A stretch of DNA of 64,000 bases from a virus: the IMG/VR virus record IMGVR_UViG_3300007734_000758; one strand, 5' to 3'. Below are positions 2,130-25,501 of this stretch, piece after piece. Positions within the stretch are counted from its first letter, which is position 1. Each line of letters opens with the position of its first letter. The notes under the pieces were generated by a model, which searched no databases, was not told where the DNA came from, and worked only from the letters and a program-made list of their open reading frames with translations. Made by a program: the position numbers and the translations under genes.

Positions 2130-2132
2130 TTG

Positions 2133-3654: not shown

Positions 3655-4051
3655 AATCTAAAATTCGATCGTAGAATACGCCTTCCTTTCCCGGTACCGG
3701 ATACTTAACTCGCTCTTCCTCACTAAGCTCTTTAACAGGCGTTAGCATCCAGCCCCACTCCTGTAAGGATCCGGCAGGGTAGAATATTAATTTCTGTGTC
3801 GATATTGATAGCGGATACCACACGCTGCCAGCAGAGTCCTTATGCTTAAGGTCACGCATCAGCGATGTTACGCTAGAATCGAACCTATTTAGCTCCTCAG
3901 AACCCTCAACCCAGGAAGTATGGTTAGTGTAACCGGACTCCATACAGAGACGATGTTCCATTCCGTTGTTCGGATCGGCTTCACACAATACACACTTGTT
4001 ACCTGTTATTGGTGATACCTCATCGTATTCATTACTTAATCTATCAAACAT
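3569..4051 (-). CDS. hypothetical protein
   Basis: Tightly packed ORF; no motif recognised. Confidence 0.6.
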   Translation of the reverse strand: MFDRLSNEYDEVSPITGNKCVLCEADPNNGMEHRLCMESGYTNHTSWVEGSEELNRFDSSVTSLMRDLKHKDSAGSVWYPLSISTQKLIFYPAGSLQEWGWMLTPVKELSEEERVKYPVPGKEGVFYDRILDFEKSEVFTPEQFPDAFARFYDWLYETEK

Positions 4052-5366: not shown

Positions 5367-6820
5367 ATAACAATTCCATTATTTTTGATAGGTGTAGACT
5401 TGCTTGCCTTATATACAGCAAAGCGTTTTCTAGGAGTCCAATTGGCAAAACAGTTTTCAATGTTTAATTTAAAACGATTACACATCTCAAACGATGACAT
5501 ACCACTCTCTTCACTAACGACCCAATTTCTTCCTGCTAATCCTGCCAAATGTCTTTCATCCGGACTCATATCATACCAATATTTTATTGCATCAGCAACA
5601 TCTGTGAATGAAACTCGGTCATCAAATATATAGGGAGTCTCCGGTGATCCCTGCAAACTACGATTAGAAGGAAATACCGGCTTAGCCCAAATACCATGCT
5701 TCTTATATTTACCCGTGTGGTTGGTTGAGAACTCAGTATCGAATTCGATCCAGTTTCCATTCTCATCCTCGAAACGACATTGGTCTTGTAATCCACCAGT
5801 AACATTATTGATGATAGGAGTACCTGCCATCAGTGACTCTGCACCAGATAAGCCGAAGCCTTCATTACTAGCAATATTAAGCGTCACATCTGCCAGGTTA
5901 TAGTAATAATTCATAGCGTGTGGCGGTACCGGCTTGTCACTAAAAATGATTTTATAATCAGGACAGATAGCACGCTGTACTGCCAATAAATCAGTACCAT
6001 TTCCATCTACCGGCTGGGTGTGCATAAACAATGCAACCCTTGAAGCCTGTTCTGTAGTTAGCTTATCGCAGAATGATTTGTATGCTAATATTACATCCCC
6101 AGGCTGTTTACGTCGTATATTTCTATTGTTCCAGAAAACTACAAAATCAACATTATTTTTAATCTTAACTTCGAACACAGTCTTCTGATACTCTTCCCAT
6201 TGTGGGTGGGTTTCATCGATCGGGAAGAATTGCTTCTCGTTAATCCCATGTGGTACATATTGAATGGCCCAATCCGGCTTAGGATTTTTACGCACTACGT
6301 TCTTAACAATGTTATTGGTTTGTTTAGAGATATTCAATAACATATCACATGATTCATAGAAATTTTCATTCCAGAAGGGATACGGAACATCATCCCAAAT
6401 ATTATAATAGATAATCGGAATCTGCTGTCGTAATTCATGTTCCATGTGGAAAAACCATACCCAATACCTAGGATCTGTGAAGATGATAATTGCATCGGGT
6501 TTTTCTAAATAAATCAATTCACGAACTAATGCTTCATTTCCATATCCATCGTTCGGATAGATTTTAATGTTAGCGTTGGTAATACCACGTTCTTTGTTTA
6601 CTGCTTCTGATATATCAAACACTTTTCCTTTATCAGGATGGTTGATTGCTGCACCTACCTGTACCCAATCAAACCAATGCGCAGTACCTGTAACAAATTC
6701 ACGTGACATAGTAGCGATGCCGCTATGTAAACGTAAATCATCGGATAGTAGTAATATTTTTTTCTTTTTCGGCGTATTCGGATCAACTTTCCGAAGTTTC
6801 GGTAATTGTAACTGTTGCAT
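5363..6820 (-). CDS. glycosyltransferase family 4 (GT-B)
   Basis: VPHG, NRNIRRK, NEGFGLSGAE (E-x7-E), GTPII..TGG. Confidence 0.9.
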   Translation of the reverse strand: MQQLQLPKLRKVDPNTPKKKKILLLSDDLRLHSGIATMSREFVTGTAHWFDWVQVGAAINHPDKGKVFDISEAVNKERGITNANIKIYPNDGYGNEALVRELIYLEKPDAIIIFTDPRYWVWFFHMEHELRQQIPIIYYNIWDDVPYPFWNENFYESCDMLLNISKQTNNIVKNVVRKNPKPDWAIQYVPHGINEKQFFPIDETHPQWEEYQKTVFEVKIKNNVDFVVFWNNRNIRRKQPGDVILAYKSFCDKLTTEQASRVALFMHTQPVDGNGTDLLAVQRAICPDYKIIFSDKPVPPHAMNYYYNLADVTLNIASNEGFGLSGAESLMAGTPIINNVTGGLQDQCRFEDENGNWIEFDTEFSTNHTGKYKKHGIWAKPVFPSNRSLQGSPETPYIFDDRVSFTDVADAIKYWYDMSPDERHLAGLAGRNWVVSEESGMSSFEMCNRFKLNIENCFANWTPRKRFAVYKASKSTPIKNNGIVI

Positions 6821-7228: not shown

Positions 7229-7666
7229 TTAGTTAACAATAACAAAGGATTTTCCTCTCTTTTTCATCCTACCAATAGGAATATTATAAAAGGAAACATC
7301 CTCTCCAGGATTGGAGAATATAATAAGTTTTTCTACTGCTGTGGCTAACAATAGATACCTATGTAAATAGTGACTTCCATGACGCGGTTTACTATAATAG
7401 TTTTCCGGCATTGCTGAGTAAAGATTGTATGGAGTAAATGCAGGATTAAATTCCATATAATTAATACCAAACTGTAGAGCAAATTTTTTAACGATTGGCT
7501 CTACACCTAATTTACTACCTCCCGATACAATCACCAACTCAGAATCAAATGAGTCTCGAAGTATCATTAGGAATTCCTTTACCTTCGATGCATTAGTATA
7601 GTTCAGTGAACCTATCATTCCGATCTTCATGATAATAAAACTTTTATACGGCTCTTTGCCGGACAC
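7229..7666 (-). CDS. SLOG (YspA/DUF2493-like) family protein
   Basis: KIGMIGS...VIVSGG..GVE...FA pattern; start probably the internal Met of MKIG. Confidence 0.6.
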   Translation of the reverse strand: MSGKEPYKSFIIMKIGMIGSLNYTNASKVKEFLMILRDSFDSELVIVSGGSKLGVEPIVKKFALQFGINYMEFNPAFTPYNLYSAMPENYYSKPRHGSHYLHRYLLLATAVEKLIIFSNPGEDVSFYNIPIGRMKKRGKSFVIVN

Positions 7667-8571
7667 AAATCTGGCTTGTCCTTAAATTCACAATACTTAC
7701 AATTTACATTTGCAGGACCTGCAATTGCGGGATATTCCCTATCTACATTGTAACTGCCATCTGGACTGAAACAATCAGCAACAAACTGTTCAATCGATTT
7801 TACTAATTTCTTTCTAGTAACGGACCCGGATGCCGGAGTAAATTCCTGTACTCGTTTCTGAGGAAAGACAGATTCCTGTAATATTTTACGTTTAACGATA
7901 AAGAATTCAATCTCAACTTTATCTGGATTCAAATTCCATTGACGACTGAAATACTCTTTATACAGAACTAACTGAGAAGTTTTTGTCTTATCCTTCTTAG
8001 CATTATCCTTCCAACCCATATAACTAGTCTTGATGTCGTAGATAGTATATGTATCTGAGTTTTCATTATAGATAACTAAATCCATAAATCCAATCAAACG
8101 AACCTTAGGATAGTCTTCACGGACACGGATATTTAATGGCATCTCAATACCAATCAGTTTATATCCTTTGCTAGGAAAGTATGCAGAACGCTTCTTCGTT
8201 ATATGTTCTAGTATCGCAACACCGTCTTCATAATATTCGGCTAACTCTGCAGGACTGGAATAATGTTGACCGAATTTATCCATTTCCTCTTTGTAGATTC
8301 GCATCATATTGGTCTGCAATAGGTTTGGCAGATTCATTTGTGATGCTAACTTGATACTCTTATTGAATACAGTATCTAACCATGTCTGTAACGTTTCATG
8401 GAAGGCAGATCCAAATGTCAAATTGATATTCGGCTCAGAAACCTTATGTTTCTTTACATAGCACAATTCCCATTGTTTCGGACAACGGGAATACATTGCG
8501 TATTGCGAGTATGATATTCTAGCCACGCCTTCTTCTATTTGTGTGGTATTAACGTCGAATATGGTCTTCAT
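7627..8571 (-). CDS. PD-(D/E)XK RecB/Cas4-like exonuclease
   Basis: SYSQ..CPKQW, GSAFHE, IE, GFMDL, DIKT, QLVLY, C-terminal CKYC..C. Confidence 0.85.
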   Translation of the reverse strand: MKTIFDVNTTQIEEGVARISYSQYAMYSRCPKQWELCYVKKHKVSEPNINLTFGSAFHETLQTWLDTVFNKSIKLASQMNLPNLLQTNMMRIYKEEMDKFGQHYSSPAELAEYYEDGVAILEHITKKRSAYFPSKGYKLIGIEMPLNIRVREDYPKVRLIGFMDLVIYNENSDTYTIYDIKTSYMGWKDNAKKDKTKTSQLVLYKEYFSRQWNLNPDKVEIEFFIVKRKILQESVFPQKRVQEFTPASGSVTRKKLVKSIEQFVADCFSPDGSYNVDREYPAIAGPANVNCKYCEFKDKPDLCPAKSRIKVLLS

Positions 8572-8607: not shown

Positions 8608-8823
8608 TTATTTTGATAATTGCTGTATGCGCCTATCCAAGTACCAGGCAGCTTTCTTAAGATCTTCCAATTCTTTTGTGGGGTCCTTTTTACCGGCCCG
8701 GGAAATGTATTTAACAACATTACCCAAACAAAAGTCTAATTGCCAGGCTTCAATTACTTTGATAGCCTCGTATGTATTGTCTGCACCACCATAATGTGCA
8801 GGGTGATTTATTGATTCTTTCAT
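8608..8823 (-). CDS. DUF3310 family (T7 gp1.7-like nucleotide kinase domain)
   Basis: INHPAHY, FCLGNVVKYISRAGKK, EDLKKAAWYL. Confidence 0.9.
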   Translation of the reverse strand: MKESINHPAHYGGADNTYEAIKVIEAWQLDFCLGNVVKYISRAGKKDPTKELEDLKKAAWYLDRRIQQLSK

Positions 8824-9302
8824 TCTAGTAACTTTTTAATTTCTTTTTCTGTCTTCCCAAACTTAGCAATCAACTCTTTCAATTCATTCTTCCTATCAAC
8901 CGTTGAGAAGTAAATATCCAAATACTGAATAGCATCCTTCCTACTTATAAGATAATAATCTTTTAGTAACTCTACAAGTCCATCCTGATAATCTTTGGAA
9001 GTTTCTTTCTTTATATACTTCAGATATATCTTCTGTTTCGGTAACAACTCTAAATACAATCTATATACCATTTCTTTATCTAATACAGTCATAGTATACT
9101 TTTGTAACATTGCTACCAATTCAACATAATCCATACTCATCGAAAGCCAGCGGTTAATCATAAAGGGACTGAAAGCCTTTTTATCGGTTTCAGTCAATTG
9201 ATCCCACGGTTTCTTCTCTACGGTCAAGTAGTTGATGAAATCGATTATTGATGCTGTCTTAAGGCTCGAGGCTGATTTTTGTACTGTTGTCTGTTTCTTC
9301 AT
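8820..9302 (-). CDS. clamp loader small subunit (T4 gp62-like)
   Basis: FSPFMINRWLS motif; next to clamp loader ATPase and clamp. Confidence 0.7.
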   Translation of the reverse strand: MKKQTTVQKSASSLKTASIIDFINYLTVEKKPWDQLTETDKKAFSPFMINRWLSMSMDYVELVAMLQKYTMTVLDKEMVYRLYLELLPKQKIYLKYIKKETSKDYQDGLVELLKDYYLISRKDAIQYLDIYFSTVDRKNELKELIAKFGKTEKEIKKLLE

Positions 9303-9537
9303 CTCTGAACATGCTCTGAATTTCTTTAGGTAATAGGTCTACTGCAATATTTCCGCAATCGTCACAACGGAACACTTGAATCGGAACTATCGCATCCTTT
9401 TCGGCACCTATTGCCAGCCTACTCACTTGCTTAAGCATCATCACAGTCTTAAAAAAGAAGCTACCGCAAACGCATTCTATGGTAGGCATCTTACCTAAAT
9501 CTAAATTTAGGTTCATTTGTTGGTTTCCACCTGTCAT
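9259..9537 (-). CDS. small zinc-ribbon protein
   Basis: CVCG and CDDCG pairs. Confidence 0.6.
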   Translation of the reverse strand: MTGGNQQMNLNLDLGKMPTIECVCGSFFFKTVMMLKQVSRLAIGAEKDAIVPIQVFRCDDCGNIAVDLLPKEIQSMFRDEETDNSTKISLEP

Positions 9538-10466
9538 TTTATAATATTTAATATGTTAATAAAAAGAGCCATTGCATGTAATTCTTTATCAACCGCGGTA
9601 GGTTCAGTTATCTGCGATTCAGCCAACGCCAAAATCACTGAAGCAACATTACCTGTAGCATACGAATCAACATTATCATACAAGAACCCGTATATATCGG
9701 AAAAGGAATTACTTCCCGTAGAACTCAACAGTCTCCGTATCTCTTGAAAACATGTTTTCTTATCAGAGGATTTGAGTAATTCTAATATTTGCATCTGATA
9801 ATTACTTTCAATCACAGATGTCTTATCCAATTCAAATTTACCTCCAATCGAATACTGCTGCAGTGTATTTAGTATCCTACGGATATCCGGATAGGAAGCA
9901 TTAATTACCATTGCAAGATCTTCCGGAACAAAGGTTACATTCTCTTTCTGCAATATGTTAGCCATCTTTATTGCGATATCCTTTTTGGATGGCGGAACTA
10001 GGTGATACAGTTGACACCTACTTTGCAGTGGTTCAATGATTCGTTCCGGGTAATTCGCAGTCAAGATAAACCTAGTATATAATGAGAACGTTTCCATTAG
10101 ATTACGGAGTGCCGGTTGGGTTGATGTCGGATTTAAAAAATCACTTTCATCAAGGATAACAATCTTTAACGGGTTGAAGCCAGCACTAGAAGCAAAGTTT
10201 TTAATCTTGTCTCGAACCAAATCAATATTACGTTCATCCGAAGCATTGATATATAGATAATCACAATTTATCGAATTGACAATGATCTTTGCCAACGTCG
10301 TCTTACCGCCACCTGCTCTACCGTGAAACAATAGATTAGGTACATCGTTAGTTTCAATAAACGTTTTAACTTTATTGATTACTGTTTCATTACCTATATA
10401 TGTATCTAAGGTAGCGGGACGATACTTTTCTGTCCACAAACTATGTTCTGTTCTTATCATAATCAA
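9534..10466 (-). CDS. clamp loader AAA+ subunit (RFC small subunit / gp44-like)
   Basis: WTEKYRP, Walker A GRAGGGKTT, NASDER, ILDESD, SRC. Confidence 0.95.
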   Translation of the reverse strand: MIMIRTEHSLWTEKYRPATLDTYIGNETVINKVKTFIETNDVPNLLFHGRAGGGKTTLAKIIVNSINCDYLYINASDERNIDLVRDKIKNFASSAGFNPLKIVILDESDFLNPTSTQPALRNLMETFSLYTRFILTANYPERIIEPLQSRCQLYHLVPPSKKDIAIKMANILQKENVTFVPEDLAMVINASYPDIRRILNTLQQYSIGGKFELDKTSVIESNYQMQILELLKSSDKKTCFQEIRRLLSSTGSNSFSDIYGFLYDNVDSYATGNVASVILALAESQITEPTAVDKELHAMALFINILNIIK

Positions 10467-11182
10467 GTATGCTGAACTTCAACCAGGAAATATTCACTCT
10501 TAAAACCATCACCCATACACACAACACGCATCAGGCCTGCATTTGAAACTTCAATAGTACCTGACTTCATATTGGAGTTGGCCTTAAAGATTTCAACCAA
10601 ATAATTCGAATTAAATGACTTATATTGAACATCACCTTCAACATCAGCCTTAATATCAAAACTGATTCGAGTCGTATTGTTTTTAGAGTAACCAATAATG
10701 ATTTCAGGAGTGCCTGATTTAGTATTGAATGTGATGTGGCTAATGTCTGGCAATGCTCCCTTTGCTTTGCTAATCTTCCCAATCAAGTCACTCGTAATAG
10801 GAACAGACAATTGGAATGATGGAAGATTTTTAGGTTTCGCGGCAGCAGGAATCACACTCAAATCAGCCAACATATATTGGGCCTTCGTGTCGGCATCTCC
10901 CAATTCAAAATTGATTGGGCGACCATCGATACTGTTCATCTTAATCGCAAGCGAATCACCGAATACATCCAATACCTTTACAAAGTTAGATGTAATAAAG
11001 ATACCTACTTCCATGTCATCCATATCAACATCTTCATATACTACTTTACCAATCAGTCCTTTGTCTTCGGTAATGACATCAGTGGATATCTCCTTTCCGG
11101 AGATTGACCATTTTACGGCTTCTACATTGCCGCCTAAATTGTACTTCTTAATGAAGTCCGATAATGTACTTTTTAGTTTCAT
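10463..11182 (-). CDS. sliding clamp (gp45-like)
   Basis: Size, beta-rich sequence, position immediately upstream of clamp loader. Confidence 0.7.
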   Translation of the reverse strand: MKLKSTLSDFIKKYNLGGNVEAVKWSISGKEISTDVITEDKGLIGKVVYEDVDMDDMEVGIFITSNFVKVLDVFGDSLAIKMNSIDGRPINFELGDADTKAQYMLADLSVIPAAAKPKNLPSFQLSVPITSDLIGKISKAKGALPDISHITFNTKSGTPEIIIGYSKNNTTRISFDIKADVEGDVQYKSFNSNYLVEIFKANSNMKSGTIEVSNAGLMRVVCMGDGFKSEYFLVEVQHT

Positions 11183-11194
11183 ATTTACTTTTAT

Positions 11195-12439
11195 TTATTC
11201 AAAATCAAAAAATGTATTTGCTACTTCTGTGTTTGCCGATGGATGAGATCCGCGTGCATATCCTAATTCACGCATACCATACTTAGCATTGTATTTAGAA
11301 TACAGTGGTTTATATCTTTGATATACTGTAAACGGATCGGAGGATTCAAACATTTCTTTTATACACATACAGAGTTGATAAATCATCGGATCTACAATGT
11401 CTTTTAGTATTTCATCATGCGACTGCAACGTCGTCTTGATTGTATTCACCGCATCAAGGAATATATTCAAATTATGATGAACAATAATCTGATACGAGGG
11501 AGTTTTAAAATCAACAATGTCCCTATATGTTCTTCCCTTACATGCAACACAATCATCGAACTTACACGGCAACGGGGCATCTAAATTATAATTAACATCT
11601 GTCGGACGACCAAAGTGTGCTGTTAAGAAAGTACCAGTCCTGTAATCAGTATTAAAATAGTAACCACCATATACACTCATCAACCCTGGAGAGGATGAAT
11701 CCGTAGATACTTGTACTTTACCTCCTGTATACTTATTCATTATCTTCTGAAGGTATTCGTAGATAACAAAATCATATACTTTAGATGCACCTAATATGTG
11801 CAAGAATTTGCATGAATCTTTAAGGAATTCTTTCTCCTTAATCATAATTGCAAGTGCATACATCAAGTGATCGATTCGACGACAATTACCGAAACCCCAA
11901 CCTTGAAAATCAAATGCTTTCACCTTTTCATACCAATACCTATAGGTTTCCTCTTCATTTCCCTGCAATACATTTAAGAATGCAGTCTTACCGGTCTGGT
12001 TCTTCTCGAAGTATTTGAAATTTTCTAAACTAATATCCAGGCAGTAATCAAATTTACCTTCCAATTTTACTCGGGGCGGTAAATCTAAATTCATTGCAAT
12101 GTCAGAATTTGCTTCCAACCAATTGAATATCGTTTCTTTGAATGACGGATCCCAAGCAATAGCACCTGTTGCTAATTGAAATCCTCCCGAATCACCTAAT
12201 ACCTGTGCGCCTTCGCAACCGAAGTCCGCATTCGCATCCATGTTCTTATAATGGTGACCTGCAGTAATAAGGAAGTACTTGGTTCGCCACTTTTCAGGAT
12301 ACTCGTCTGTATAGAAGCGAGAAGTCACTCCAGGACGTAATTCGTGGTTTTTCATTAACCAATTCTTACTGGCGCCCGCACTCAGTGAGGGATAATATGA
12401 AAATTCTTTTTCGCCAGGAATCTTATCTGGTTGTATCAT
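11195..12439 (-). CDS. TGT-fold guanine transglycosylase, DpdA-like (probable DNA 7-deazaguanine insertase)
   Basis: DSGGFQ, MNLDLPP, NVLQG, LHILG, STDSSS, C-terminal C..CxxC..HN zinc site; folE and queE in the same window. Confidence 0.8.
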   Translation of the reverse strand: MIQPDKIPGEKEFSYYPSLSAGASKNWLMKNHELRPGVTSRFYTDEYPEKWRTKYFLITAGHHYKNMDANADFGCEGAQVLGDSGGFQLATGAIAWDPSFKETIFNWLEANSDIAMNLDLPPRVKLEGKFDYCLDISLENFKYFEKNQTGKTAFLNVLQGNEEETYRYWYEKVKAFDFQGWGFGNCRRIDHLMYALAIMIKEKEFLKDSCKFLHILGASKVYDFVIYEYLQKIMNKYTGGKVQVSTDSSSPGLMSVYGGYYFNTDYRTGTFLTAHFGRPTDVNYNLDAPLPCKFDDCVACKGRTYRDIVDFKTPSYQIIVHHNLNIFLDAVNTIKTTLQSHDEILKDIVDPMIYQLCMCIKEMFESSDPFTVYQRYKPLYSKYNAKYGMRELGYARGSHPSANTEVANTFFDFE

Positions 12440-13514
12440 CTTCGTAACCTTTTATTATTTTATCTACTAATTTTGTTCCGTCAAAAAACTGACCTGCTTT
12501 TTCTTCTGTCGTCTTTGCAACCGCTACATACGAGTCATATCTTTCAATCCTATCACGAATTAAATTAACTAAATTGTTTCTATTTTCCAAATAATATTCG
12601 TAACTTTCAGTCCAGGTACTCGGATATAAGAATTCTTGGTGATACATTTCTGCATAACTCAAACGCCTAGGCATTAATGGTAATGCCCCAGCTAACATTC
12701 CTTCCCAACAACTAATACCTAACGTTTCCTGCAGGTTTGCAGAGAATACCATTTTAGATCTTTTTAATAAGTTATGATATTCCTCTTTCGTTAGATTCTT
12801 TTCCTGGCATACTACGAATTCGTATTCAGGCAATTGTTCTGCTAAGTCCTTAAATATATCTACCTGTTTTTCCTTAGAAACTCGATGCGGGAATAGAATT
12901 ATGTTCTCCTTTTTCGTATCGTTTTCCGGGAAAAGATCCTTAAGGTAATTGAACGGAAATCCTGCTATAACTGCCTTACTAGGATAGAAGTTCATTCCAC
13001 CCAAAGCATTTGTATAAAATAGTTCAAAATGCCATCTAGTAGCAAAATAATTGAAATCAGATGCTTGATAAATAGAACGTTCGAATGAATAGGACCATGT
13101 TTTATGTTTAATCTTTTGACCTAATAAGTCCCAAGCATCATACGATCCTGCGTGCCAAATCGAATGTATTTCAACCGGAATGTCTAACAGGACACTCATA
13201 TATTTCAACTGTATAATACACGGGTTCCATGCATCAGTGAATACAAACTTATCACCAGGCTTGATACTACCATTATTAAACTCGGATGCAATAAAATTCA
13301 TCTGAGTATTTTTCCAAATATTAGTACCGGCAAAATTTAAAAATGCACCCGGCGTGGTTTCACCACTCACACTCTCACCTACTACATTGAAAACGTTAAA
13401 CGGTCGTTTTAAGTCAGTAGCACGTTTCCTAATTAGGCTAGGAATAAAATCCAACCACTCCCCCGTATATCTACTCGGAAGCGGTTCAAGTGACATTACA
13501 TATATATTATTCAT
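12423..13514 (-). CDS. GT-B glycosyltransferase coupled to DpdA-like gene
   Basis: FPHRVSKEK, QETLGISCWE (E-x7-E), LSYAEM. Confidence 0.8.
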   Translation of the reverse strand: MNNIYVMSLEPLPSRYTGEWLDFIPSLIRKRATDLKRPFNVFNVVGESVSGETTPGAFLNFAGTNIWKNTQMNFIASEFNNGSIKPGDKFVFTDAWNPCIIQLKYMSVLLDIPVEIHSIWHAGSYDAWDLLGQKIKHKTWSYSFERSIYQASDFNYFATRWHFELFYTNALGGMNFYPSKAVIAGFPFNYLKDLFPENDTKKENIILFPHRVSKEKQVDIFKDLAEQLPEYEFVVCQEKNLTKEEYHNLLKRSKMVFSANLQETLGISCWEGMLAGALPLMPRRLSYAEMYHQEFLYPSTWTESYEYYLENRNNLVNLIRDRIERYDSYVAVAKTTEEKAGQFFDGTKLVDKIIKGYEDDTTR

Positions 13515-13517
13515 AAA

Positions 13518-14450
13518 TTACCATTTAATATATCCACGAACATAGTACGAATGACGATTTAACCCATCCTCAAAGCCTTTCTTCACTTCATCCAGATTAT
13601 TTCGATCGTATCCCATAGTCCAAATAAACTGAGTATCAATAATTCCCGTCTTAATAAAATCACAGGTCAATGCCATTTGTTCGTTAAAGTCAGTATTACG
13701 TGGTGACGGCATTATAAGAGTATGGCAATTCCAACAGTTCGTGAAAAAGTTAGTCGTTACAGGATCATACGGAGTCGCTGCATAGCAAATCAATGCTTCC
13801 AAGTCTGCCAGCTTCTCACCGATAATATGGAAGTTAGATCCTTTAGAAGTCAAATCAATAATAACCTTATAACGCTTTCCAGATGCGATGATATCATCTA
13901 ATTTATGCAGCGTTGCAACATTATGCCAATGATCACGGTTACTCGATCCTACTACCGTAAACTTATAATCGAATATCTTAAAGTACTGTCCGATAACAAC
14001 ACTCATAAAACCAGAACCTAACAAAAGGATTTCTTCATCTTCATATCCCATCGCTTCCATCATGCCCAATGTCTTGTTTGCAATATTAATTGCACAGGCA
14101 GCTGGTTGCAGAATATACTTAGGAGAAGCTTCCGGAATAACTACAAATTCATTCTGCTTTGCTAAATAATAATCGGCATATGCAGGATCAGACCAGGTAG
14201 AAACTATATCACCTACCTTTACGCCTGTGATATTCTTTCCTACCTCTACCACCTCTCCCGTGCCTTCGTGGCCCTGCTTTAGGAATGGCATCGGTTCTTC
14301 GAAACCTGCATACGCCCCGATATCGCTTCGGCAGATACCGGTCATTATCGTTTTAATTAAAATAGTGTCATCAGTACAGATAGGCATATCTACCATATGC
14401 TCTGTAAGGTCACGGTTGCCCGTCGTGTGAAAGTATCGTATTTGTCCCAT
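13518..14450 (-). CDS. zinc-dependent medium-chain (alcohol/sugar) dehydrogenase
   Basis: GICRSD, GHEGTGEVVEVG..V..VKVGD, LLGSGFM; lacks the structural-zinc lobe. Confidence 0.85.
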   Translation of the reverse strand: MGQIRYFHTTGNRDLTEHMVDMPICTDDTILIKTIMTGICRSDIGAYAGFEEPMPFLKQGHEGTGEVVEVGKNITGVKVGDIVSTWSDPAYADYYLAKQNEFVVIPEASPKYILQPAACAINIANKTLGMMEAMGYEDEEILLLGSGFMSVVIGQYFKIFDYKFTVVGSSNRDHWHNVATLHKLDDIIASGKRYKVIIDLTSKGSNFHIIGEKLADLEALICYAATPYDPVTTNFFTNCWNCHTLIMPSPRNTDFNEQMALTCDFIKTGIIDTQFIWTMGYDRNNLDEVKKGFEDGLNRHSYYVRGYIKW

Positions 14451-15369
14451 AAAATTTATTTTTTATTGTTTCTAAAACACTGTGAATCCAACAGTCAATA
14501 TAATTTTGTATATCTGCCTTCTGTGAATTCATATCTGAAAAGTAATGAATCATTTCTAAATATGCTGATTCAGGACACAATCCAAAATCATACTTCACAC
14601 TAGGTGTATCATCTTTATATACAATCTCTAATCCAATCTCATTCTCTTTAATCTCCGGAGTCTTCCAAGATGCCTCTATTGTGGTAGGAAATCCTGCAAT
14701 TGCAGATACCGTTAACTTACAATAATCATCGACATCATATACTCCATTCATATCAACTTTACCGTAGTCCGAAGACTTTATATCTTTTAATGTATAACGT
14801 TGTTCAACAGTTACGGGCATTACCGGATAATATTCATTTATTACTCCGAAATAGATACTCAATAAATGCGGAACTAAGTCTGAACTCACACCACTAAATG
14901 CAAATTCTTTATTTGTAAACCAACCTCCTGGATTAGGAATTCGATTTGCATTTAACCATTTGATATTTAATGATTGTATATTTTCTTTGTTCTTAGAAAT
15001 GAGCTTATGAATATCCCGAATGTTCTTGCGAAACATATTGTTCTTAATCATAAAGATGTTGTTACGTTTCGCAAATATCATATCCCATTCAGCCTTTGTC
15101 TTGAATCCTGGCTTCTCTACCAAAACCACCTTAGATACCTCATACAACTTCTTTGCTGCTGATAGGTGTAAATAGTTTGGTAAACATATAATCGACATAT
15201 CAACGGTAGGATGTTTTTCTAACGCAGAGGAAATGTTATGAAACATTGCCTTTTTGTTTGGATCCTTATCGACCGTTATAATATCATACTTATAACGTTT
15301 AGATGATTTACATACCTTTTCGTAGAGTTGGCCAATACCCATTCCTACGATCATAACCTTTAATGACAT
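14410..15369 (-). CDS. Gfo/Idh/MocA family oxidoreductase
   Basis: IVGMGIG, ICLPNYLH, VLVEKP, DLVPH. Confidence 0.85.
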   Translation of the reverse strand: MSLKVMIVGMGIGQLYEKVCKSSKRYKYDIITVDKDPNKKAMFHNISSALEKHPTVDMSIICLPNYLHLSAAKKLYEVSKVVLVEKPGFKTKAEWDMIFAKRNNIFMIKNNMFRKNIRDIHKLISKNKENIQSLNIKWLNANRIPNPGGWFTNKEFAFSGVSSDLVPHLLSIYFGVINEYYPVMPVTVEQRYTLKDIKSSDYGKVDMNGVYDVDDYCKLTVSAIAGFPTTIEASWKTPEIKENEIGLEIVYKDDTPSVKYDFGLCPESAYLEMIHYFSDMNSQKADIQNYIDCWIHSVLETIKNKFYGTNTILSHDGQP

Positions 15370-15373
15370 AAGT

Positions 15374-15405
15374 TAAATATATAAAATTTTTCTTTAAAAA
15401 TCAAA
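15374..15405 (-). promoter_or_regulatory. Bacteroidota-type promoter heading the oxidoreductase-GT-DpdA-clamp operon
   Basis: TTTG-N20-TATATTTA, 4 nt before ATG 15369. Confidence 0.7.
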
Positions 15406-17907
15406 AAAGCTGGAAACTATTTTTTGCGATTCATCAGGTAATTTTCCGAAATTCAACGCATCATAAAATGATTGTAATTTGTTTTCCAAATTGGATCTGA
15501 ATGTTTCAGTATAATCAATATTCTTTCGAATAAAGTCCATAATGGATGGAGGATCTGAATTACCTGTAAATGCAATTACTTCTAATCCATATTGGTTTGG
15601 AATCAAATGTATCCATTTAATCTTACCACCGCTTTTAATTGGTGGATAGATAGAATCCAAGTTATGTAGTTTTAACATATGGTTATATGCCAATGCTGCC
15701 TTAATATGTGCAGGAGTACCTTTTTTGAACTGTAATCCGTTGCATTTAAAACTATCTAAATTCTTGGCTGATGTCGGCTTTGCGATATCTAAGACATCCT
15801 GCTCTGGTATTGACCGTTTAAAATCAAGAAGCTTCCTATCAATGGTATCTTTATCTACAAATTTAAGAATATCACTTAGCATTGAATTCATGTAATTTCT
15901 AAACATTTTCGGGAAATTACTACGAACAACATCCAGTCCTTTCACTACCACTTTATCTGCAGGAATACCTTTCTCTAAGTCAAATATTTTGTGATAGGCA
16001 TATCGCTTCTTAGCAATCCAGAAACCGGAACTGATAATCGATTCCTCTTTAAACACTAACCGATTATTGTTTGTGAATAAATGATTTGTTGCAAACAATT
16101 CTAAGTTACTATTAATGAACTCTGCCAATTTAGCCGACATATCACGTATCTGCGATACCTCGTCACCATTATGTTTGATTATCTTATCCAATTGGAAATA
16201 GCAACTATCAGTATCAGAATACTTACAATAATCTTCATTAGAATCTACCTTATATGTATTCTTGATGTAATAGTTACCCATTATATCTGCAAAGCGAAGT
16301 GCATCCTGTCCAGTGATGGTCACCGCTTCTACATTATCAATATTATAAAACCTGAATGAACTCAAACCTAAAACACCATACATAGAGTTCAACAGGATCT
16401 TGGTAACGTACTGCAATGAATCATAATAGTATTCCATTGAAGCATTACCTTCTTTGGCATACTTAACCATTAAACGTTTATATTCAACCCTTTCTTCAAA
16501 CCATTTCTCTAGGATTGCAGGGATGAATCCTTTATTCTTCGTAATATATACTGCACCATTACCCGCAACACAATACTGATTAGTATGTAACCATTTTTTA
16601 AACTCATCTAGTGTAAACAGTTGAAGCTTACCATTACGGTATTTGAATGTAAGTTTAGATGGATTAGTCTCAATGCCTTTATGTTTAGCCATCATACTAA
16701 CATTGACCCACTCCTCTAACTTTCCTATTAGGGTCTCACCAGAAATATTACATGTCATGATAACTGACGGATACAGAGATGTAGCATCCAATGCAGTCAT
16801 CCATTTATATCTTCCCGGAATAGGCGGCTTTACATATGCACCCTCTGCCGTTTCCTGTTCTTCATCATCTCTACGTTCAACTCTTGCAGGACCGTTCGGA
16901 CCTACAATACCAATACGTTTCATATAAGTAAGCAGTGCACCATCCAAGTACCTAGAAGAGTGCCATATTGCACTGTATGGTACATGTCCCTTGTGACACA
17001 ATTTCATTGTGATGTCAATGTAATCTAACTTATCATCGATACCACTAACCAACCTAACGTCATTCAGGTTATACTCAATAAACTTCTCAATATCGTTACG
17101 ATACAAGTCATCTAAAGTACCGGTATATTCAGTCTTTCCTTTACCAATTATCTTCTTTGCAATAGCATCTAGTGTGTATGAAGGTTCCTCATTGGGAGTA
17201 AATTTCTTATACAATGCCAGATAATCTAAACAATTGACGCCAGCAATCTCGTATATACTAGATTCGTACTTTCTCTCTACAATACCAATTGGACTTAATG
17301 TTTTCATTGCATCTTCACCCAGCAGATACTGTAGTCTACCACACAGATATGGTATATCAAAGAAATCAATATTCCATCCGGTTATAACGGTAGGTTTGTA
17401 TTTCGAATATACTGCCAGGAAAGAAAGTAAAAGATCCTGCTCATCTTTACATGAACGGATCATTACACCATCACCCTCATATGATTGTATCTTACTTTCA
17501 GGATCTAAAATGAAACATATCTCTTTTCTACTAGGTTTGAATTCTAGAGAGATAGCCGTAATTGCATTTACAGGATTATCCAGGTCCGGATAGTTTTTTG
17601 TGGAATCAACCTCAATATCGATATTCAATATCCTGTGGTTGGTTGATATATTATCGGAGTCTGTATAGTGATCGATTAGTATCCTAGTATCTACCGGAAC
17701 ATCTGATTCATATATCAACCCCGCTTCAACATCTTCCTTCGACCATTTACCTACACGCCTAACTCGTTTACCGTCAATTGTAGTAAACTCACCTGAACTA
17801 TCTACTTTATAGGCATACGGTTTATATTGAAATTGTAAATGTCCCTTTTCATCGTCCCACAAGTGTACGACACCAGACTTTCGATTGTAATATATTGATT
17901 GGTACAC
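15394..17907 (-). CDS. polB: DNA polymerase family B (GTG start)
   Basis: Exo DIE, GWNIDFFDIPY, YNLND; pol DATSLYPS, KILLNSMYG, YSDTDS, KKRY, KGLD. Confidence 0.97.
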   Translation of the reverse strand: MYQSIYYNRKSGVVHLWDDEKGHLQFQYKPYAYKVDSSGEFTTIDGKRVRRVGKWSKEDVEAGLIYESDVPVDTRILIDHYTDSDNISTNHRILNIDIEVDSTKNYPDLDNPVNAITAISLEFKPSRKEICFILDPESKIQSYEGDGVMIRSCKDEQDLLLSFLAVYSKYKPTVITGWNIDFFDIPYLCGRLQYLLGEDAMKTLSPIGIVERKYESSIYEIAGVNCLDYLALYKKFTPNEEPSYTLDAIAKKIIGKGKTEYTGTLDDLYRNDIEKFIEYNLNDVRLVSGIDDKLDYIDITMKLCHKGHVPYSAIWHSSRYLDGALLTYMKRIGIVGPNGPARVERRDDEEQETAEGAYVKPPIPGRYKWMTALDATSLYPSVIMTCNISGETLIGKLEEWVNVSMMAKHKGIETNPSKLTFKYRNGKLQLFTLDEFKKWLHTNQYCVAGNGAVYITKNKGFIPAILEKWFEERVEYKRLMVKYAKEGNASMEYYYDSLQYVTKILLNSMYGVLGLSSFRFYNIDNVEAVTITGQDALRFADIMGNYYIKNTYKVDSNEDYCKYSDTDSCYFQLDKIIKHNGDEVSQIRDMSAKLAEFINSNLELFATNHLFTNNNRLVFKEESIISSGFWIAKKRYAYHKIFDLEKGIPADKVVVKGLDVVRSNFPKMFRNYMNSMLSDILKFVDKDTIDRKLLDFKRSIPEQDVLDIAKPTSAKNLDSFKCNGLQFKKGTPAHIKAALAYNHMLKLHNLDSIYPPIKSGGKIKWIHLIPNQYGLEVIAFTGNSDPPSIMDFIRKNIDYTETFRSNLENKLQSFYDALNFGKLPDESQKIVSSFFDF

Positions 17908-17910
17908 TAA

Positions 17911-18546
17911 TTATTTACCCTCAAAACGTTTAACGAAATTATAAAACTCTTCACGTACTGCTGGAGTTTCAATAAAACCGCCAGACAGTTTAGAAGTAAT
18001 CATCATACTATCATGCTTTACTCCTCGTATACATGCACACTGATGCTCAGCCTCAATCATAACAGCAATACCCTTATTCCCCTGTATCGTTTCATCCAGG
18101 AAGGAATGAATCTGCTGAGTCAGATTTTCTTGAACCTGCGGTCTACGTGAAAACCACTCAACAGTTCGATTTAATTTACTCAGACCAATTATCTTTCCTG
18201 TAGAGTCTGGAATATATGCAACATATGCTTTGCCTACGAATGGCAAATGGTGGTGGCTGCATATGGATTTTACGTCAATTTTTCCCTGAAAGACAATCCC
18301 ATCATATCCATTGACATTATCAAATGCAGTAATTTTAGGCTTATCAGTATAACAACCTACAATTAAGTCCTCTACATACGCCTTCGCAACACGATGCGGA
18401 GTATCAGACATATTGGGGTCATTCCTCCAATCAAAACCTAAAGCATCAAGATATTTTGCATATGCCTTTTCGGCACGTTTGATAATACGACGACGTTCCT
18501 TTTCGCTTAACGGAATGTTGTCATTTGAATTCTTTAAAAGTATCAT
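17911..18546 (-). CDS. folE: GTP cyclohydrolase I
   Basis: TPHRVAK, CSHHHLPF, GLSKLNR, RRPQVQE, HQCACIRG. Confidence 0.97.
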   Translation of the reverse strand: MILLKNSNDNIPLSEKERRRIIKRAEKAYAKYLDALGFDWRNDPNMSDTPHRVAKAYVEDLIVGCYTDKPKITAFDNVNGYDGIVFQGKIDVKSICSHHHLPFVGKAYVAYIPDSTGKIIGLSKLNRTVEWFSRRPQVQENLTQQIHSFLDETIQGNKGIAVMIEAEHQCACIRGVKHDSMMITSKLSGGFIETPAVREEFYNFVKRFEGK

Positions 18547-18550
18547 AACA

Positions 18551-18582
18551 TGAATATAGTAAAAATAAAATAAACTTACAAT
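18551..18582 (-). promoter_or_regulatory. Bacteroidota-type promoter for folE-polB
   Basis: ATTG-N20-TATATTCA, 4 nt before ATG 18546. Confidence 0.65.
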
Positions 18583-19085
18583 TATTGTACGTAAATATTC
18601 TCTAAATTACGTAACGATCCATTTAGATCTAAACCGTAACCATAAACCCAGGCATCGTTTTCAATCTCAAAACAGGAGTAATCAACAATTTTAGGAGATG
18701 ATTTCCTGGTTAACATAGTAACTGTAATGATATGCTTCGGATTATGTTTTAAGAGATGTTCTTTAAGGAATACAAGTGTATTGCCAGAATCGCAAATATC
18801 ATCTACAATAACAACCGTTCTATCAGATATGTCCGTTTCAATATCTTTTGTCATTTCAACCGTACCACGTTCTGTTCCTTGATACGATTTCAATCGAATA
18901 AAATCAACTTCATGTGGTATATTGATTTCTTTGGTTAATGAATCAAAAAACATATATGCTCCATTCAATACACATATAAATAACGGTATATCGTTTGGAG
19001 TTTTAGAACGCAGTACGGTGTTTAGCTGGTGTGCTACGGATTGTACTTTCTTATGTATCGTATTTGTATCGTATAACCTGTTCAT
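18582..19085 (-). CDS. hpt: hypoxanthine/guanine phosphoribosyltransferase
   Basis: CVLNGA, SY, VVIVDDICDSGNTL (PRPP motif), VYGYGLD, RNL. Confidence 0.92.
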   Translation of the reverse strand: MNRLYDTNTIHKKVQSVAHQLNTVLRSKTPNDIPLFICVLNGAYMFFDSLTKEINIPHEVDFIRLKSYQGTERGTVEMTKDIETDISDRTVVIVDDICDSGNTLVFLKEHLLKHNPKHIITVTMLTRKSSPKIVDYSCFEIENDAWVYGYGLDLNGSLRNLENIYVQ

Positions 19086-19092
19086 AATAAAA

Positions 19093-19458
19093 TTAACTTA
19101 AAAAGCGAAGCTTATAAAGAGTACTATTCACCAACTCTTCAACAGTATCGATCTGATTCTGAATATATGAATCTTGTATTGCAGACCTGGTGCTACTGAT
19201 AATTGAAAGGAGTGCTTTCAAATATCCGATAACAGTCGCTTTTCCGCTGTATTGAATAACATTATAGCTTTGATATCCTTCTAAAATACCGTACTTACCT
19301 TGGTACGATTCTACCAACCCATCAACTAATCCTACAATACCATCGTAATATGCGCCTAAAGCAACATGCTCGGCATAAGAATTAGTTTGTAAATGAAACA
19401 CATGAGTCTGTGTTCTAGAGTGCATTAAATGCGATATTAGTTTAACGAACTGTTCCAT
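19093..19458 (-). CDS. ferritin/Dps-like four-helix protein (DUF5856-like)
   Basis: HVFHLQT.SYAEHVALGAYYD...DGLVESYQG...YKL. Confidence 0.7.
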   Translation of the reverse strand: MEQFVKLISHLMHSRTQTHVFHLQTNSYAEHVALGAYYDGIVGLVDGLVESYQGKYGILEGYQSYNVIQYSGKATVIGYLKALLSIISSTRSAIQDSYIQNQIDTVEELVNSTLYKLRFLS

Positions 19459-24736: not shown

Positions 24737-25501
24737 TTATACGCCGGTCTTTTTATTCCAAATAGTTACATGTAACCTATCTGTAAATCTGACACCTTCC
24801 CTGATAGCTAGGTCAGCAGCTAATTCCCTAGTATTGTTTAATTCTTCCTGCGTCTGTCCTTCAGGCATAATTACGATTTTATCTTTTGTAATAAAACCAG
24901 GAGTTATATAATCGTTTTGTATTTCATTCCAATCAGCTTCACTGTTAACCACGAACTTAAAGATAGAATTCGGTAAACTTCCCATATATGCAAGAACAAG
25001 TGGCTTGATCCTAACTTTTTCTTTCATCCCGGAATTGTTTAATTTCGGGCTATTGTTCCACCAATCTACTAATTCTACGAACTCGGTTGTTGGCATAAGA
25101 ACTGCCTCGTTTTCTACCTCAACATACGGTTTAAATCCATATTTATCCTTAAATGCTGTTAAGAAGGCAATACATTCCTTCTCCTGTTTTAATGGAGACC
25201 CACCGGTCAATATCAAATGCTGGCCGGTTTTGAATCTTTCTACTAGTCCGATAGATTCAAACATATCGAAAATCTCATCGAAGGAATATTCATTGCCCTC
25301 AGGCCAAACATCTAACGTGTCACACCACACACATTTCAATGTGCAGCCTTGAAGCCGTATAAATGTAGATATCACACCCGCATGCGGGCCTTCGCCTTGT
25401 ATAGTATCTGAAAACATTTCGGCGATTGCTAATTTATCCGTACCATTTACTTTTTTGGTGAAGGTAGGTTTCTGTTGTATTAATGTTATTGGCATAACCA
25501 T
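24737..25501 (-). CDS. queE: 7-carboxy-7-deazaguanine synthase (radical SAM)
   Basis: EMFSDTIQGEG, FIRLQGCTLKCVWCDT, LTGG.P, SPKL, RLH. Confidence 0.9.
   Translation of the reverse strand: MVMPITLIQQKPTFTKKVNGTDKLAIAEMFSDTIQGEGPHAGVISTFIRLQGCTLKCVWCDTLDVWPEGNEYSFDEIFDMFESIGLVERFKTGQHLILTGGSPLKQEKECIAFLTAFKDKYGFKPYVEVENEAVLMPTTEFVELVDWWNNSPKLNNSGMKEKVRIKPLVLAYMGSLPNSIFKFVVNSEADWNEIQNDYITPGFITKDKIVIMPEGQTQEELNNTRELAADLAIREGVRFTDRLHVTIWNKKTGV

Follow-up and report, generated by a model that had tools for sequence, protein, structure and literature searches.

A glycosyltransferase and a redox pair beside a DpdA-like transglycosylase in a phage replication operon: candidate genes for a sugar-bearing 7-deazaguanine in DNA

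The closest characterised counterpart comes from Cellulophaga phage phiST, whose dDG system (DpdL/DpdA3) exchanges guanine once the DNA has been replicated (Cui, Hutinet et al. 2023, NAR; PMC10516641). The same study reported that DpdL and DpdA of Acidovorax phage ACP17 alone gave no dDG and suggested a need for further enzymes; it mentions neither a glycosyltransferase (GT) nor a Gfo/MDR pair ('glycosyl' occurs 0 times). Like phiST, the phage analyzed here has FolE, QueD and QueE but not QueC, encodes a TGT-fold transglycosylase close to its polymerase, and carries a DpdL-type paralog of QueD marked by the LxxxHRHx(F/W) motif. However, its transglycosylase is of the long form (414 aa, versus 259 aa for DpdA3), with a fold closer to the Vibrio nt-1 and Achromobacter Motura proteins than to phiST DpdA3, and a GT4 glycosyltransferase, a Gfo/MDR pair and a clamp-binding-like tail are added.

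Glycosylation of related or analogous bases has been described in two other settings. HuiG, from the huimycin pathway of Kutzneria albida, is a GT that glycosylates a free 7-deazapurine (PMC7439116; 10.64898/2026.04.15.718813). By its described activity it resembles the GT studied here, being a GT-B enzyme whose 7-deazapurine acceptor is made via FolE, QueD and QueE, but it belongs to secondary metabolism, N-glycosylates the free base at its 2-amino group, and has neither a DpdA nor a DNA target. The T4 alpha/beta-glucosyltransferases and other glycosylated-pyrimidine systems place variable sugars on a non-canonical DNA base (PMC13326640; 10.1101/2023.12.21.572611) and likewise combine a phage GT with tailoring genes alongside. 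These systems require a pyrimidine hydroxyl (5hmC, 5hoC or 5hmU) supplied by a thymidylate-synthase homolog or a TET enzyme, whereas here only a canonical ThyA is present and the genes linked to the GT concern a purine (deazaguanine). Our literature search found no paper describing a GT-DpdL-DpdA module with a Gfo/MDR pair. We consider it about an even bet (probability roughly 0.5) that the four genes analyzed here supply, from within the replication operon, the phage-specific steps of 7-deazaguanine DNA hypermodification, with a sugar-bearing base as the predicted product.

The source is an uncultured T4-like phage with a 157-kb genome, of which the window comprises 64,000 nucleotides. The genome also carries an approximately 25-kb sugar island with at least five further GTs, so the phage clearly performs other glycan chemistry. 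The four open reading frames are intact and co-directional between PolB and the sliding clamp (Table 1), and the active-site motifs and families are intact in all four proteins; profiles, folds and motifs agree with the families named in the sequence-only reading (Gfo/Idh/MocA, Zn-MDR, GT-B and TGT-fold). Its description of overlapping or abutting genes between polB and the clamp and clamp loader, with folE and queE in the window, also stands. The Gfo start lies 24 nt from the PolB stop, Gfo and MDR overlap by 41 nt (a 13-nt gap instead if MDR starts at residue 19), a 3-nt gap separates MDR from GT, GT and TGT overlap by 17 nt, and the clamp follows after 12 nt. The clamp was called from its position and its synteny beside gp44/gp62 clamp-loader matches, and it is syntenic in related loci. 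The QueE matches to NCBIfam models (E 3e-19 to 6e-15) all fall under the cut-off, with a Radical_SAM match at E 9e-7. In contrast, the single promoter proposed ahead of the four genes was not confirmed as better than a random match: the candidate (TTGATT-17-TATATT, 15404-15376) is a 9/12 match, a grade found 47 times in the region against 48.9 expected by chance. The sole strong terminator upstream lies at 19524-19494, and the four genes therefore appear to be transcribed within a single long replication unit.

Table 1. Features of the replication locus, in positions of the window
Feature	Coordinates	Strand	Remarks
Sliding clamp, gp45-like, 239 aa	10463..11182	-	predicted docking partner
DpdA-like TGT-fold DNA transglycosylase (predicted), 414 aa	11195..12439	-	
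C-terminal clamp-binding-like tail of TGT-like protein, residues 403-414	11198..11233	-	...NTFFDFE
GT4-type retaining GT-B glycosyltransferase, 363 aa	12423..13514	-	
Zn-dependent MDR (medium-chain dehydrogenase/reductase), 310 aa	13518..14450	-	
Gfo/Idh/MocA oxidoreductase, 319 aa	14410..15369	-	predicted glycoside/sugar 3-dehydrogenase
Family B DNA polymerase PolB, 837 aa	15394..17907	-	PF00136, PF03104, phrog_262 E 1.5e-178
GTP cyclohydrolase I FolE	17911..18546	-	PF01227 E 2.8e-51; NCBIfam FolE
Hypoxanthine-guanine phosphoribosyltransferase homolog	18582..19085	-	TIGR01203 E 6.5e-41
QueE (7-carboxy-7-deazaguanine synthase)	24737..25501	-	QueE NCBIfam models, Radical_SAM

The sequence-only reading had noted that queD, queC and queF were missing from the window. 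A search of the rest of the genome recovered queD (CxxxHGH motif) together with the DpdL-like paralog (LKDLHRHMW motif), while queC and queF are absent from the whole genome, and therefore the core base should be CDG or 7-deazaguanine. Neither ThyX nor Tet/JBP was found in the genome, and no alternative acceptor base was found. If DpdL does yield 7-deazaguanine, that base offers no hydroxyl to which a sugar could be O-linked, and the bond would have to be that of a C-, N- or acyl-glycoside.

The TGT-like protein contains a GDSGGFQ motif, and its AF2 model (pLDDT 89) superimposes on human QTRT1 with a VIA Z of 25.2 and an rmsd of 3.6 Å across 312 residues; TGT was also matched. Comparison by hhalign with ACP17 DpdA (ASD50403) gave 96% probability (E 1.9e-9), and PF01702 was found in some homologs. 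We considered whether the protein might modify tRNA in a queuosine- or archaeosine-type reaction, reprogramming translation rather than protecting DNA. The nearest solved structures are all tRNA-guanine transglycosylases, NCBIfam gave a weak match, located at the Zn site, to TgtA of archaea, and the PADLOC DpdA models gave no match, all of which would fit a tRNA substrate. However, Cui et al. treated its ACP17 homolog as a DpdA, the gene lies between PolB and the clamp, and neither QueC, QueF nor a QueA-type gene for preQ1 or Q was found in the genome. Furthermore, Pseudomonas phage PA5oct, which has a homolog, has DNA that resists restriction enzymes at G-containing sites, a pattern that points to modified G (PMC12191111).

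The C terminus of the TGT-like protein also bears on its target. PolB ends in ...SSFFDF, and the TGT-like tail matches it; the two tails co-vary across related loci and in ACP17, where they read LDDLFE and LDELFE, respectively. Among 312 ORFs, such a tail was found on PolB, on the TGT-like protein and on one probably spurious opposite-strand ORF. A model of the TGT-like tail in complex with the clamp scored 0.66, compared with 0.00 for the best control, with the interface on clamp residues 40-44, 113-121 and 215-238. The C-terminal tail of T4/RB69 gp43 reportedly docks on the clamp, as Shamoo and Steitz are said to have described in 1999. The arrangement here is similar in that the polymerase ends in a short hydrophobic motif and has a gp45-type clamp as partner, but differs in that the motif, with modelled docking, is also carried by the base-exchange enzyme, which ends as its cognate PolB does. 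We found no description in the literature of a polymerase-type clamp tail on any DpdA. These observations suggest that the TGT-like tail copies the clamp-binding tail of PolB, predicting docking on the clamp, and that the enzyme probably works on newly replicated DNA at the fork. They argue against action on tRNA, the outcome that the sequence-only reading had set against itself, and we regard a tRNA target as highly improbable.

We then asked how consistently the genes travel together. Among 56 related TGT-centred loci with at least 3 kb upstream, the GT was present in 46, DpdL in 42 and both in 39, and the GT adjoined DpdL and/or the TGT gene in 46. Gfo and MDR occurred together in six of the 56, each time with the GT. 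The GT is thus the conserved core of the module and the redox pair an optional add-on. Viewed from the other side, MDR has 477 relatives in IMG/VR, and in the best 80 of these 477 loci Gfo was present and adjoined MDR in every case, accompanied by TGT in 76, DpdL in 73 and the GT in 70. This MDR-centred association persisted at TGT identities of 24-33% and with other gene orders. Three cultured phages, PA5oct, ACP17 and Sinorhizobium phage Phosso, carry homologous TGT-like, GT and DpdL genes, tied to FolE/QueE clusters, and PA5oct has all five genes, including a Gfo-like/MDR pair. However, identity to these phages is only 23-52%, their gene order differs and their genes do not lie at the PolB-clamp junction; the PA5oct Gfo-like protein also seems to lack the EKP motif found here. 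The co-occurrence of the GT and redox genes with a dpdA-like gene that the sequence-only reading called for was thus observed, and together with the clamp tail it supports reading the four genes as a single functional unit linked to 7-deazaguanine modification of DNA.

The GT, Gfo and MDR genes could also owe their place next to the DpdA-like gene to nothing more than a hot spot that tolerates insertions at the PolB-clamp junction; their products would then glycosylate another base in DNA, a protein of the virion or replisome, or a glycan of the host. In Microcystis phage Mel-JY01 the clamp directly follows PolB, which indicates that the slot is an insertion site, and in relatives the PolB-to-TGT slot also holds unrelated cargo (VWA, LRR and methyltransferase genes). 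The large separate glycan island is in keeping with such a role, as is the size of the GT family, with at least 8000 matches against about 1000 for the TGT family; the GT family looks the larger, with most of its contexts outside the sampled loci. Nevertheless, TGT-Gfo-MDR-DpdL-GT clusters also occur away from the PolB-clamp junction in phages with as little as 26-29% PolB identity, so that the association survives rearrangement and deep divergence. In addition, the GT is embedded in the FolE/QueE clusters of the cultured phages, and the genome offers no route to hydroxymethyl- or hydroxy-pyrimidines. We therefore judge a target outside the deazaguanine pathway to be quite unlikely.

The GT model (AF2 pLDDT 91) matched BshA, MshA, glycogen synthase and PglA best in Foldseek (E about 1e-9), and residues E263-x7-E271, R211 and K216 are invariant. 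The protein is acidic (pI 5.8) and lacks a clamp tail, and in Phosso its gene lies with DpdL, FolE and QueE, 170 kb from the TGT gene; for these reasons the GT may act only on a soluble intermediate. On this account the GT, with or without Gfo/MDR, would act on deazapurine or pterin intermediates, and DNA would end up with dDG, dCDG or some other small sugar-free derivative. The sugar might then activate or mask the intermediate for a time, for instance by hiding the free base from host tRNA-TGT, or it might give DpdL a leaving group or handle. Another option is that the redox pair does not act on a sugar and reduces the side chain of a pterin or deazapurine. The GT is linked more tightly to DpdL than to the TGT gene, with adjacency in 39 loci and in all three cultured phages, and a pterin glucosyltransferase (5zes) is among its fold matches. 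The HuiG precedent and the failure of ACP17 DpdL and DpdA alone to give dDG are also consistent with this possibility. On the other hand, we identified no sugar-removing glycosidase in the module, and QueD is canonical while DpdL lacks the catalytic Cys required for PTPS-type chemistry. The PolB-to-TGT slot of relatives holds variable tailoring genes (a cytidylyltransferase, LicD, an NTP-transferase/aminotransferase fusion and a second GT); such variation looks like diversification of a final exposed structure, as expected from an arms race over DNA recognition, which argues against a transient intermediate. Glycosylation confined to soluble intermediates thus appears possible but somewhat unlikely.

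The proteins of the redox pair retain the features of their families. The Gfo/Idh/MocA protein matches PF01408 at 29 bits (cut-off 24) and has a Rossmann GMGIGQ motif, EKP (LVEKPG) and D-x3-H (SSDLVPH), while MDR (phrog_2640) matches ADH_N at 46.8 bits (cut-off 23.5), with the catalytic Zn ligands C40, H61 and E62 and a GSG motif invariant in A3. The best PDB sequence matches of Gfo are DgpA (E 3e-4) and levoglucosan dehydrogenase, both glycoside 3-dehydrogenases, although the likeness of Gfo and MDR to glycoside dehydrogenases is weak (E 3e-4). In E. coli, YcjS and YcjQ are D-glucoside and D-guloside 3-dehydrogenases, respectively, with 3-keto intermediates (PMC11543891). The phage pair likewise consists of two dehydrogenases, and YcjS is annotated as Gfo/Idh/MocA, but the likeness to YcjS does not go beyond shared family membership (24% identity across 118 aa), the similarity to YcjQ is weak, no YcjR-type epimerase is present here, and the E. 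coli pair is catabolic rather than part of a modification pathway. We take YcjQ to be a Zn-MDR. Because the nearest solved Gfo relatives are glycoside 3-dehydrogenases, remodelling after glycosyl transfer would, as judged from sequence, fit at least as well as synthesis of an unusual sugar before transfer, the order put forward in the sequence-only reading.

For the preferred reading, in which a sugar is attached to the deazaguanine, we propose the following route. FolE, QueD and QueE would make 7-carboxy-7-deazaguanine, as the gene set suggests, which the DpdL-like QueD paralog may decarboxylate to 7-deazaguanine, as proposed in published work. The DpdA-like enzyme would exchange guanine in phage DNA for the deazaguanine, and the retaining GT4-type enzyme would add a sugar to the deazaguanine, either as the free base ahead of its insertion or on DNA. 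By analogy with YcjS/YcjQ, the Gfo/Idh/MocA and Zn-MDR proteins might then remodel this sugar by way of a keto intermediate, with epimerisation at C3 as one option. If so, virion DNA would contain a sugar-bearing 7-deazaguanine that shields it from host nucleases. The hypoxanthine-guanine phosphoribosyltransferase homolog is kept beside FolE or PolB in many related loci, and salvage of the guanine freed by base exchange is a possible role for it.

The genes for the Gfo/Idh/MocA protein (Gfo), the Zn-MDR dehydrogenase (MDR), the glycosyltransferase (GT) and the TGT-like protein overlap or are spaced by 3-24 nt. Analysis of the whole 157,151-bp IMG/VR virus record, which carries direct terminal repeats and contains the window as the minus strand of bases 59263-123262, upheld most of what the sequence-only reading had described, namely the four genes, their family assignments, their position between the family B polymerase (PolB) and the clamp, and the presence of FolE and QueE. 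The exception was the single promoter proposed to precede the four genes: the candidate is a 9/12 sigma-70-like match, and shuffled sequence yields matches of this quality just as often (48.9, versus 47 here). A strong terminator-like hairpin, built of a 14-bp stem and a trailing T run, is the only clear one upstream of the gene run that extends from DUF5856 to the clamp loader; the scanned stretch also contains five weak 5-bp candidates. In the closest cultured relative by PolB, Microcystis phage Mel-JY01 (40% identity), the clamp directly follows PolB, indicating that the place taken by the four genes is an insertion slot. A search of cultured phages with the region at the DNA level gave no match.

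Features of the replication locus and of associated genes (window positions unless marked as genome positions)
Feature	Coordinates	Strand	Order of transcription or remark
Terminator-like hairpin	19524-19494	-	upstream of gene run
DUF5856 gene	19093-19458	-	first
HGPRT homolog	18582-19085	-	second, just upstream of FolE
FolE	17911-18546	-	third
PolB	15394-17907	-	fourth
Candidate promoter	15404-15376		
Gfo/Idh/MocA	14410-15369	-	fifth
Zn-MDR	13518-14450	-	sixth
GT, 363 aa	12423-13514	-	seventh
TGT-fold protein, 414 aa	11195-12439	-	eighth
Sliding clamp	10463-11182	-	ninth
Clamp loader	9534-10466 and 8820-9302	-	after clamp
PD-(D/E)XK nuclease	7627-8571	-	last
ThyA	22120-23355	-	
Glycan island (L096, L097)	440-6820, continuing in genome G000:C1:123263-141300		co-directional, about 25 kb
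DpdL-like gene, 119 aa	genome 143159-143518		
QueD	genome 144268-144840		

The AF2 model of the TGT-like protein (pLDDT 89) has a TGT-type (beta/alpha)8 barrel: Foldseek matched it to bacterial, archaeal and human TGT at E about 2e-9, and comparison with human QTRT1 gave a VIA Z of 25.2 with an rmsd of 3.6 A over 312 aligned residues. The catalytic-Asp motif GDSGGFQ is present, with G82-D83-S84-G85-G86-x-Q88 invariant across 32 homologs. The nucleophile Asp of E. coli Tgt is D264; the invariant T246-D247-S-S-S-P was aligned by hhalign with E. coli IDMFDCVMP, at low probability and with a single sequence as the template. A Cys3-His zinc pattern (consensus PCxxDCPxC...HN; C292, C297, C300 and H322) aligns with the E. 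coli zinc site, the TgtA model matches residues 290-340, and the cysteines are conserved in the majority of homologs without being invariant. The protein matched no Pfam family, PF01702 included, and PF01702 is present in 20 of the 120 homologs listed for it. PADLOC models matched none of the four proteins (for the TGT-like protein, none at E up to 1), and when the TGT-like protein was searched against PDB sequences, the sole result was a repeat-protein match that we judged spurious. Profile comparison with the DpdA of Acidovorax phage ACP17 gave an hhalign probability of 96% (E 1.9e-9); Cui et al. (PMC10516641) treat that homolog as the phage's DpdA. BFVD matches included proteins of nt-1 and phiST. 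FolE, QueD and QueE, the enzymes associated with DpdA, are all encoded in the genome, with FolE two genes upstream of the four-gene run, and FolE and QueE recur in related loci.

The C terminus of the TGT-like protein (...NTFFDFE) resembles that of PolB (...SSFFDF). In T4 and RB69, the clamp is bound by the C-terminal tail of the polymerase. The PolB and TGT tails co-vary across loci (KKINSLFKF/KKINNLFKF, KMDGLFW/KMDALFD and ISKFLEVD/ISKFLTNEEK), and likewise in ACP17 (SLDDLFE/TLDELFE). Among the 312 ORFs of the genome, such a tail was found only in PolB, the TGT-like protein and one opposite-strand ORF that is probably spurious; no PolB-type tail is present on the GT, Gfo or MDR. When the clamp was modelled with the TGT tail, the complex scored 0.66, versus 0.00 for the best of three controls. 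Of 78 solved complexes, 51 attained that mark, as did 2 of 108 mismatched pairs; agreement between runs was at least 55% of contacts, with a partner pLDDT of 46-49. The model thus supports binding of the clamp by the TGT tail, although the pass may reflect mere likeness, since clamp-peptide complexes have already been solved. The PolB-like, co-varying tail provides indirect support for a TGT-like protein that would exchange guanine for a 7-deazaguanine in DNA rather than in tRNA, and suggests how a complete, replication-coupled base replacement could come about.

The sequence-only reading had tied the GT and the two redox genes to the DpdA-like gene, and we analyzed this association in both directions by alignment-based scans of IMG/VR. 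The scan with the TGT-like protein found 561 relatives, and the best 80 loci were analyzed, with counts taken from the 56 that had at least 3 kb upstream. In these, the GT was beside the TGT gene in 46/56, a homolog of DpdL (a QueD paralog) in 42/56 and both in 39/56; Gfo and MDR were found together in 6/56, with the GT present every time. The reverse scan from the MDR gave 477 relatives, and in the best 80 of these loci Gfo was adjacent in 80/80 and a TGT gene lay within 10 kb in 76/80, with DpdL in 73, GT in 70, FolE in 55 and QueE in 40. A distant clade (PolB 26-29% and TGT 24-33% identical) with the order TGT-Gfo-MDR-DpdL-GT-FolE-QueE accounts for most of the MDR-centred loci, so that the association persists through rearrangement and deep divergence. 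The co-occurrence was confirmed from either end, and the tie of the redox pair to GT-DpdL-DpdA clusters is near-exclusive. A single-sequence locus search with the MDR returned only the phage's own duplicate contig.

Within the phage collection, homologs of the GT were limited to 17 records. In the Pseudomonas phage PA5oct group, the genes encode a TGT-like protein (EST35_0316), GT (0317), a DpdL-like protein (0318), a PRT-like protein (0321) and QueE (0322). The order in ACP17 is FolE, a gene of no assigned function, DpdA, GT, DpdL and QueE, while Sinorhizobium phage Phosso has the clamp, a 'glycosylase', a small gene at the DpdL position, GT, an unassigned gene, FolE and, farther on, QueE, with its TGT-like gene 170 kb from the GT cluster. 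MDR homologs in this collection were confined to the PA5oct group, where a Gfo-like gene lies directly ahead of the MDR gene, EST35_0363 in PA5oct, making PA5oct a cultured carrier of all five genes (TGT-like, GT, DpdL-like, Gfo-like and MDR). The restriction pattern of PA5oct was read by its authors as modified G (PMC12191111). With the genes carried by three cultured phage groups, the prediction is open to direct testing. In the PA5oct Gfo-like protein (EST35_0362; locus L177:3132-3998), DIN is aligned at the position of the catalytic EKP, and this protein may be inactive or have another chemistry.

The AF2 model of the GT (pLDDT 91) has the two Rossmann domains of a GT-B fold, and Foldseek matched it to BshA, MshA, PglA and glycogen synthase at E 4e-10 to 1e-7. 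This retaining-type GT4/GT5 fold predicts glycosyl transfer from an NDP-sugar. Across 27 homologs, the E-x7-E motif (E263...E271, QETLGISCWEG) and two basic donor-phosphate residues, R211 and K216, do not vary. The GT family is large, with at least 8000 matches. The Pfam Glycos_transf_1 score was 23.3, below the cut-off of 26.4, and a search of PDB sequences with the GT profile found nothing.

QueD, QueC and QueF had been missing from the window; in the rest of the genome we found a canonical QueD (CxxxHGH) and a DpdL-like paralog with an LKDLHRHMW motif, homologous to the ACP17 and PA5oct DpdL-like genes, whereas QueC, QueF and a second TGT were absent genome-wide. With the scheme of Cui et al. 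(PMC10516641), this gene set points to 7-carboxy-7-deazaguanine (CDG) as the soluble base, or to 7-deazaguanine if DpdL is the putative decarboxylase. T4-type DNA glucosyltransferase systems need a phage route to 5hmC, 5hoC or 5hmU, in contrast to this genome, in which the sole thymidylate-synthase homolog is a canonical ThyA (TIGR03284, 289 bits versus a cut-off of 108; Asn of PFNIASY retained) and neither ThyX nor Tet/JBP was found. The genome thus lacks the pyrimidine handles on which DNA glycosylation usually depends, and a hydroxymethyl- or hydroxy-pyrimidine acceptor was ruled out. At 411 aa, versus about 264-320, the ThyA is enlarged by an insert of roughly 100 residues. A pteridine glycoside, made by FolE, PTPS, reductases and a BGluT-like GT, was also considered; the match to BGluT (5zes) did not rise above those to dozens of other GT4 enzymes, and QueE, DpdL and TGT travel with the GT, so that this reading survives only within the alternative of a soluble glycosylated intermediate. 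Because 7-deazaguanine lacks a hydroxyl, the options for a deazaguanine acceptor are a C7 C-glycoside, an N2 N-glycoside or a CDG acyl-glycoside; HuiG is a precedent for N2 glycosylation, with a free base as the acceptor (PMC7439116). Action on the free base is favored by three features of the GT: it is linked more tightly to DpdL than to the TGT, its pI is acidic and it has no clamp tail. The HGPRT homolog is kept beside FolE or PolB in many related loci, and could salvage exchange-released guanine to GTP for FolE or, alternatively, make a deazaguanine nucleotide.

Gfo scored above the PF01408 cut-off, and a Rossmann motif (GMGIGQ), EKP (LVEKPG) and D-x3-H (SSDLVPH) can be read in its sequence. 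Its Atlas structural neighbors were all Gfo/Idh/MocA proteins, including a YcjS-family cluster at TM 0.83, and its best solved relatives, both weak, were DgpA (a C-glycoside 3-oxidase) and levoglucosan dehydrogenase. The MDR scored above the ADH_N cut-off, with the catalytic zinc ligands C40, H61 and E62, along with G145 and G147, invariant in alignment A3; the structural-zinc Cys4 loop is absent and ADH_zinc_N gave no score. Analogy with YcjS and YcjQ suggests that Gfo and MDR may act on a glycoside via a 3-keto intermediate, the likeness being at the family level only; orthology to these E. coli proteins was ruled out.

Other relatives carry different genes between PolB and TGT: a cytidylyltransferase in 14 loci and, elsewhere, LicD with an NTP-transferase/aminotransferase fusion and a methyltransferase, or a second GT. 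Such varying carbohydrate genes are the pattern expected from the diversification of an exposed glycan.

Taken together, the four genes very probably form a single deazaguanine DNA-modification module. The proposed deazaguanine-sugar interpretation is a plausible one to which comparative genomics lends good support; that the sugar is on DNA is what we infer, and we put the probability of a sugar-bearing deazaguanine in DNA at roughly 0.5. More tentatively, a transglycosylase tethered to the clamp would place a 7-deazaguanine glycoside at the replication fork, with a glycan diversified among lineages by swappable cassettes (Gfo/MDR, cytidylyltransferase, LicD, a second GT and possibly the 25-kb sugar island). 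To our knowledge, the sugar-bearing DNA bases are all pyrimidines (glucosyl-hmC, base J and arabinosyl-hoC), and the eight described phage 7-deazaguanines that we know of carry small groups only. If true, the glycoside would be the first glycosylated purine to occur naturally in DNA, and hence a DNA base of a new chemical class; among base-exchange enzymes, the transglycosylase would be the first shown to travel on the sliding clamp. In the literature we found no glycosylated deazaguanine in DNA and no paper on a glycosyltransferase in a phage deazaguanine pathway; a 2026 preprint on genome mining of deazapurine clusters left out dpdA-linked loci by design (10.64898/2026.04.15.718813). The module is common, with hundreds of IMG/VR loci from T4-like to jumbo phages, so that it would alter recognition of much environmental phage DNA by restriction enzymes, CRISPR, type IV/END nucleases and DNA glycosylases; sequencing or amplification of such DNA could also be affected.

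In 38 of the related loci (for example, L010:8357-8776), PolB and DpdL are separated by a gene for a conserved protein of some 140 aa; this protein has no Pfam match and no homolog in this genome. In one locus (L013:2855-8936), the slot before the GT holds an LRR protein, a methyltransferase, an NTP-transferase/aminotransferase fusion, Gfo, MDR and LicD, which suggests that the glycan bears a phospho-substituent resembling phosphocholine or aminoethylphosphonate. The glycan island of this genome runs past the start of the window and encodes a GT-B-like protein, three GT2 proteins, Glyco_trans_1_2, a UDP-Glc/GDP-Man dehydrogenase-like protein, two DegT aminotransferases, a Polysacc_synt_2 dehydratase, a sugar C-methyltransferase, two FdtA ketoisomerases and three more SDR epimerase/reductases. 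It is followed by SOD, the DpdL-like gene and QueD, so that deazaguanine genes bracket the island.
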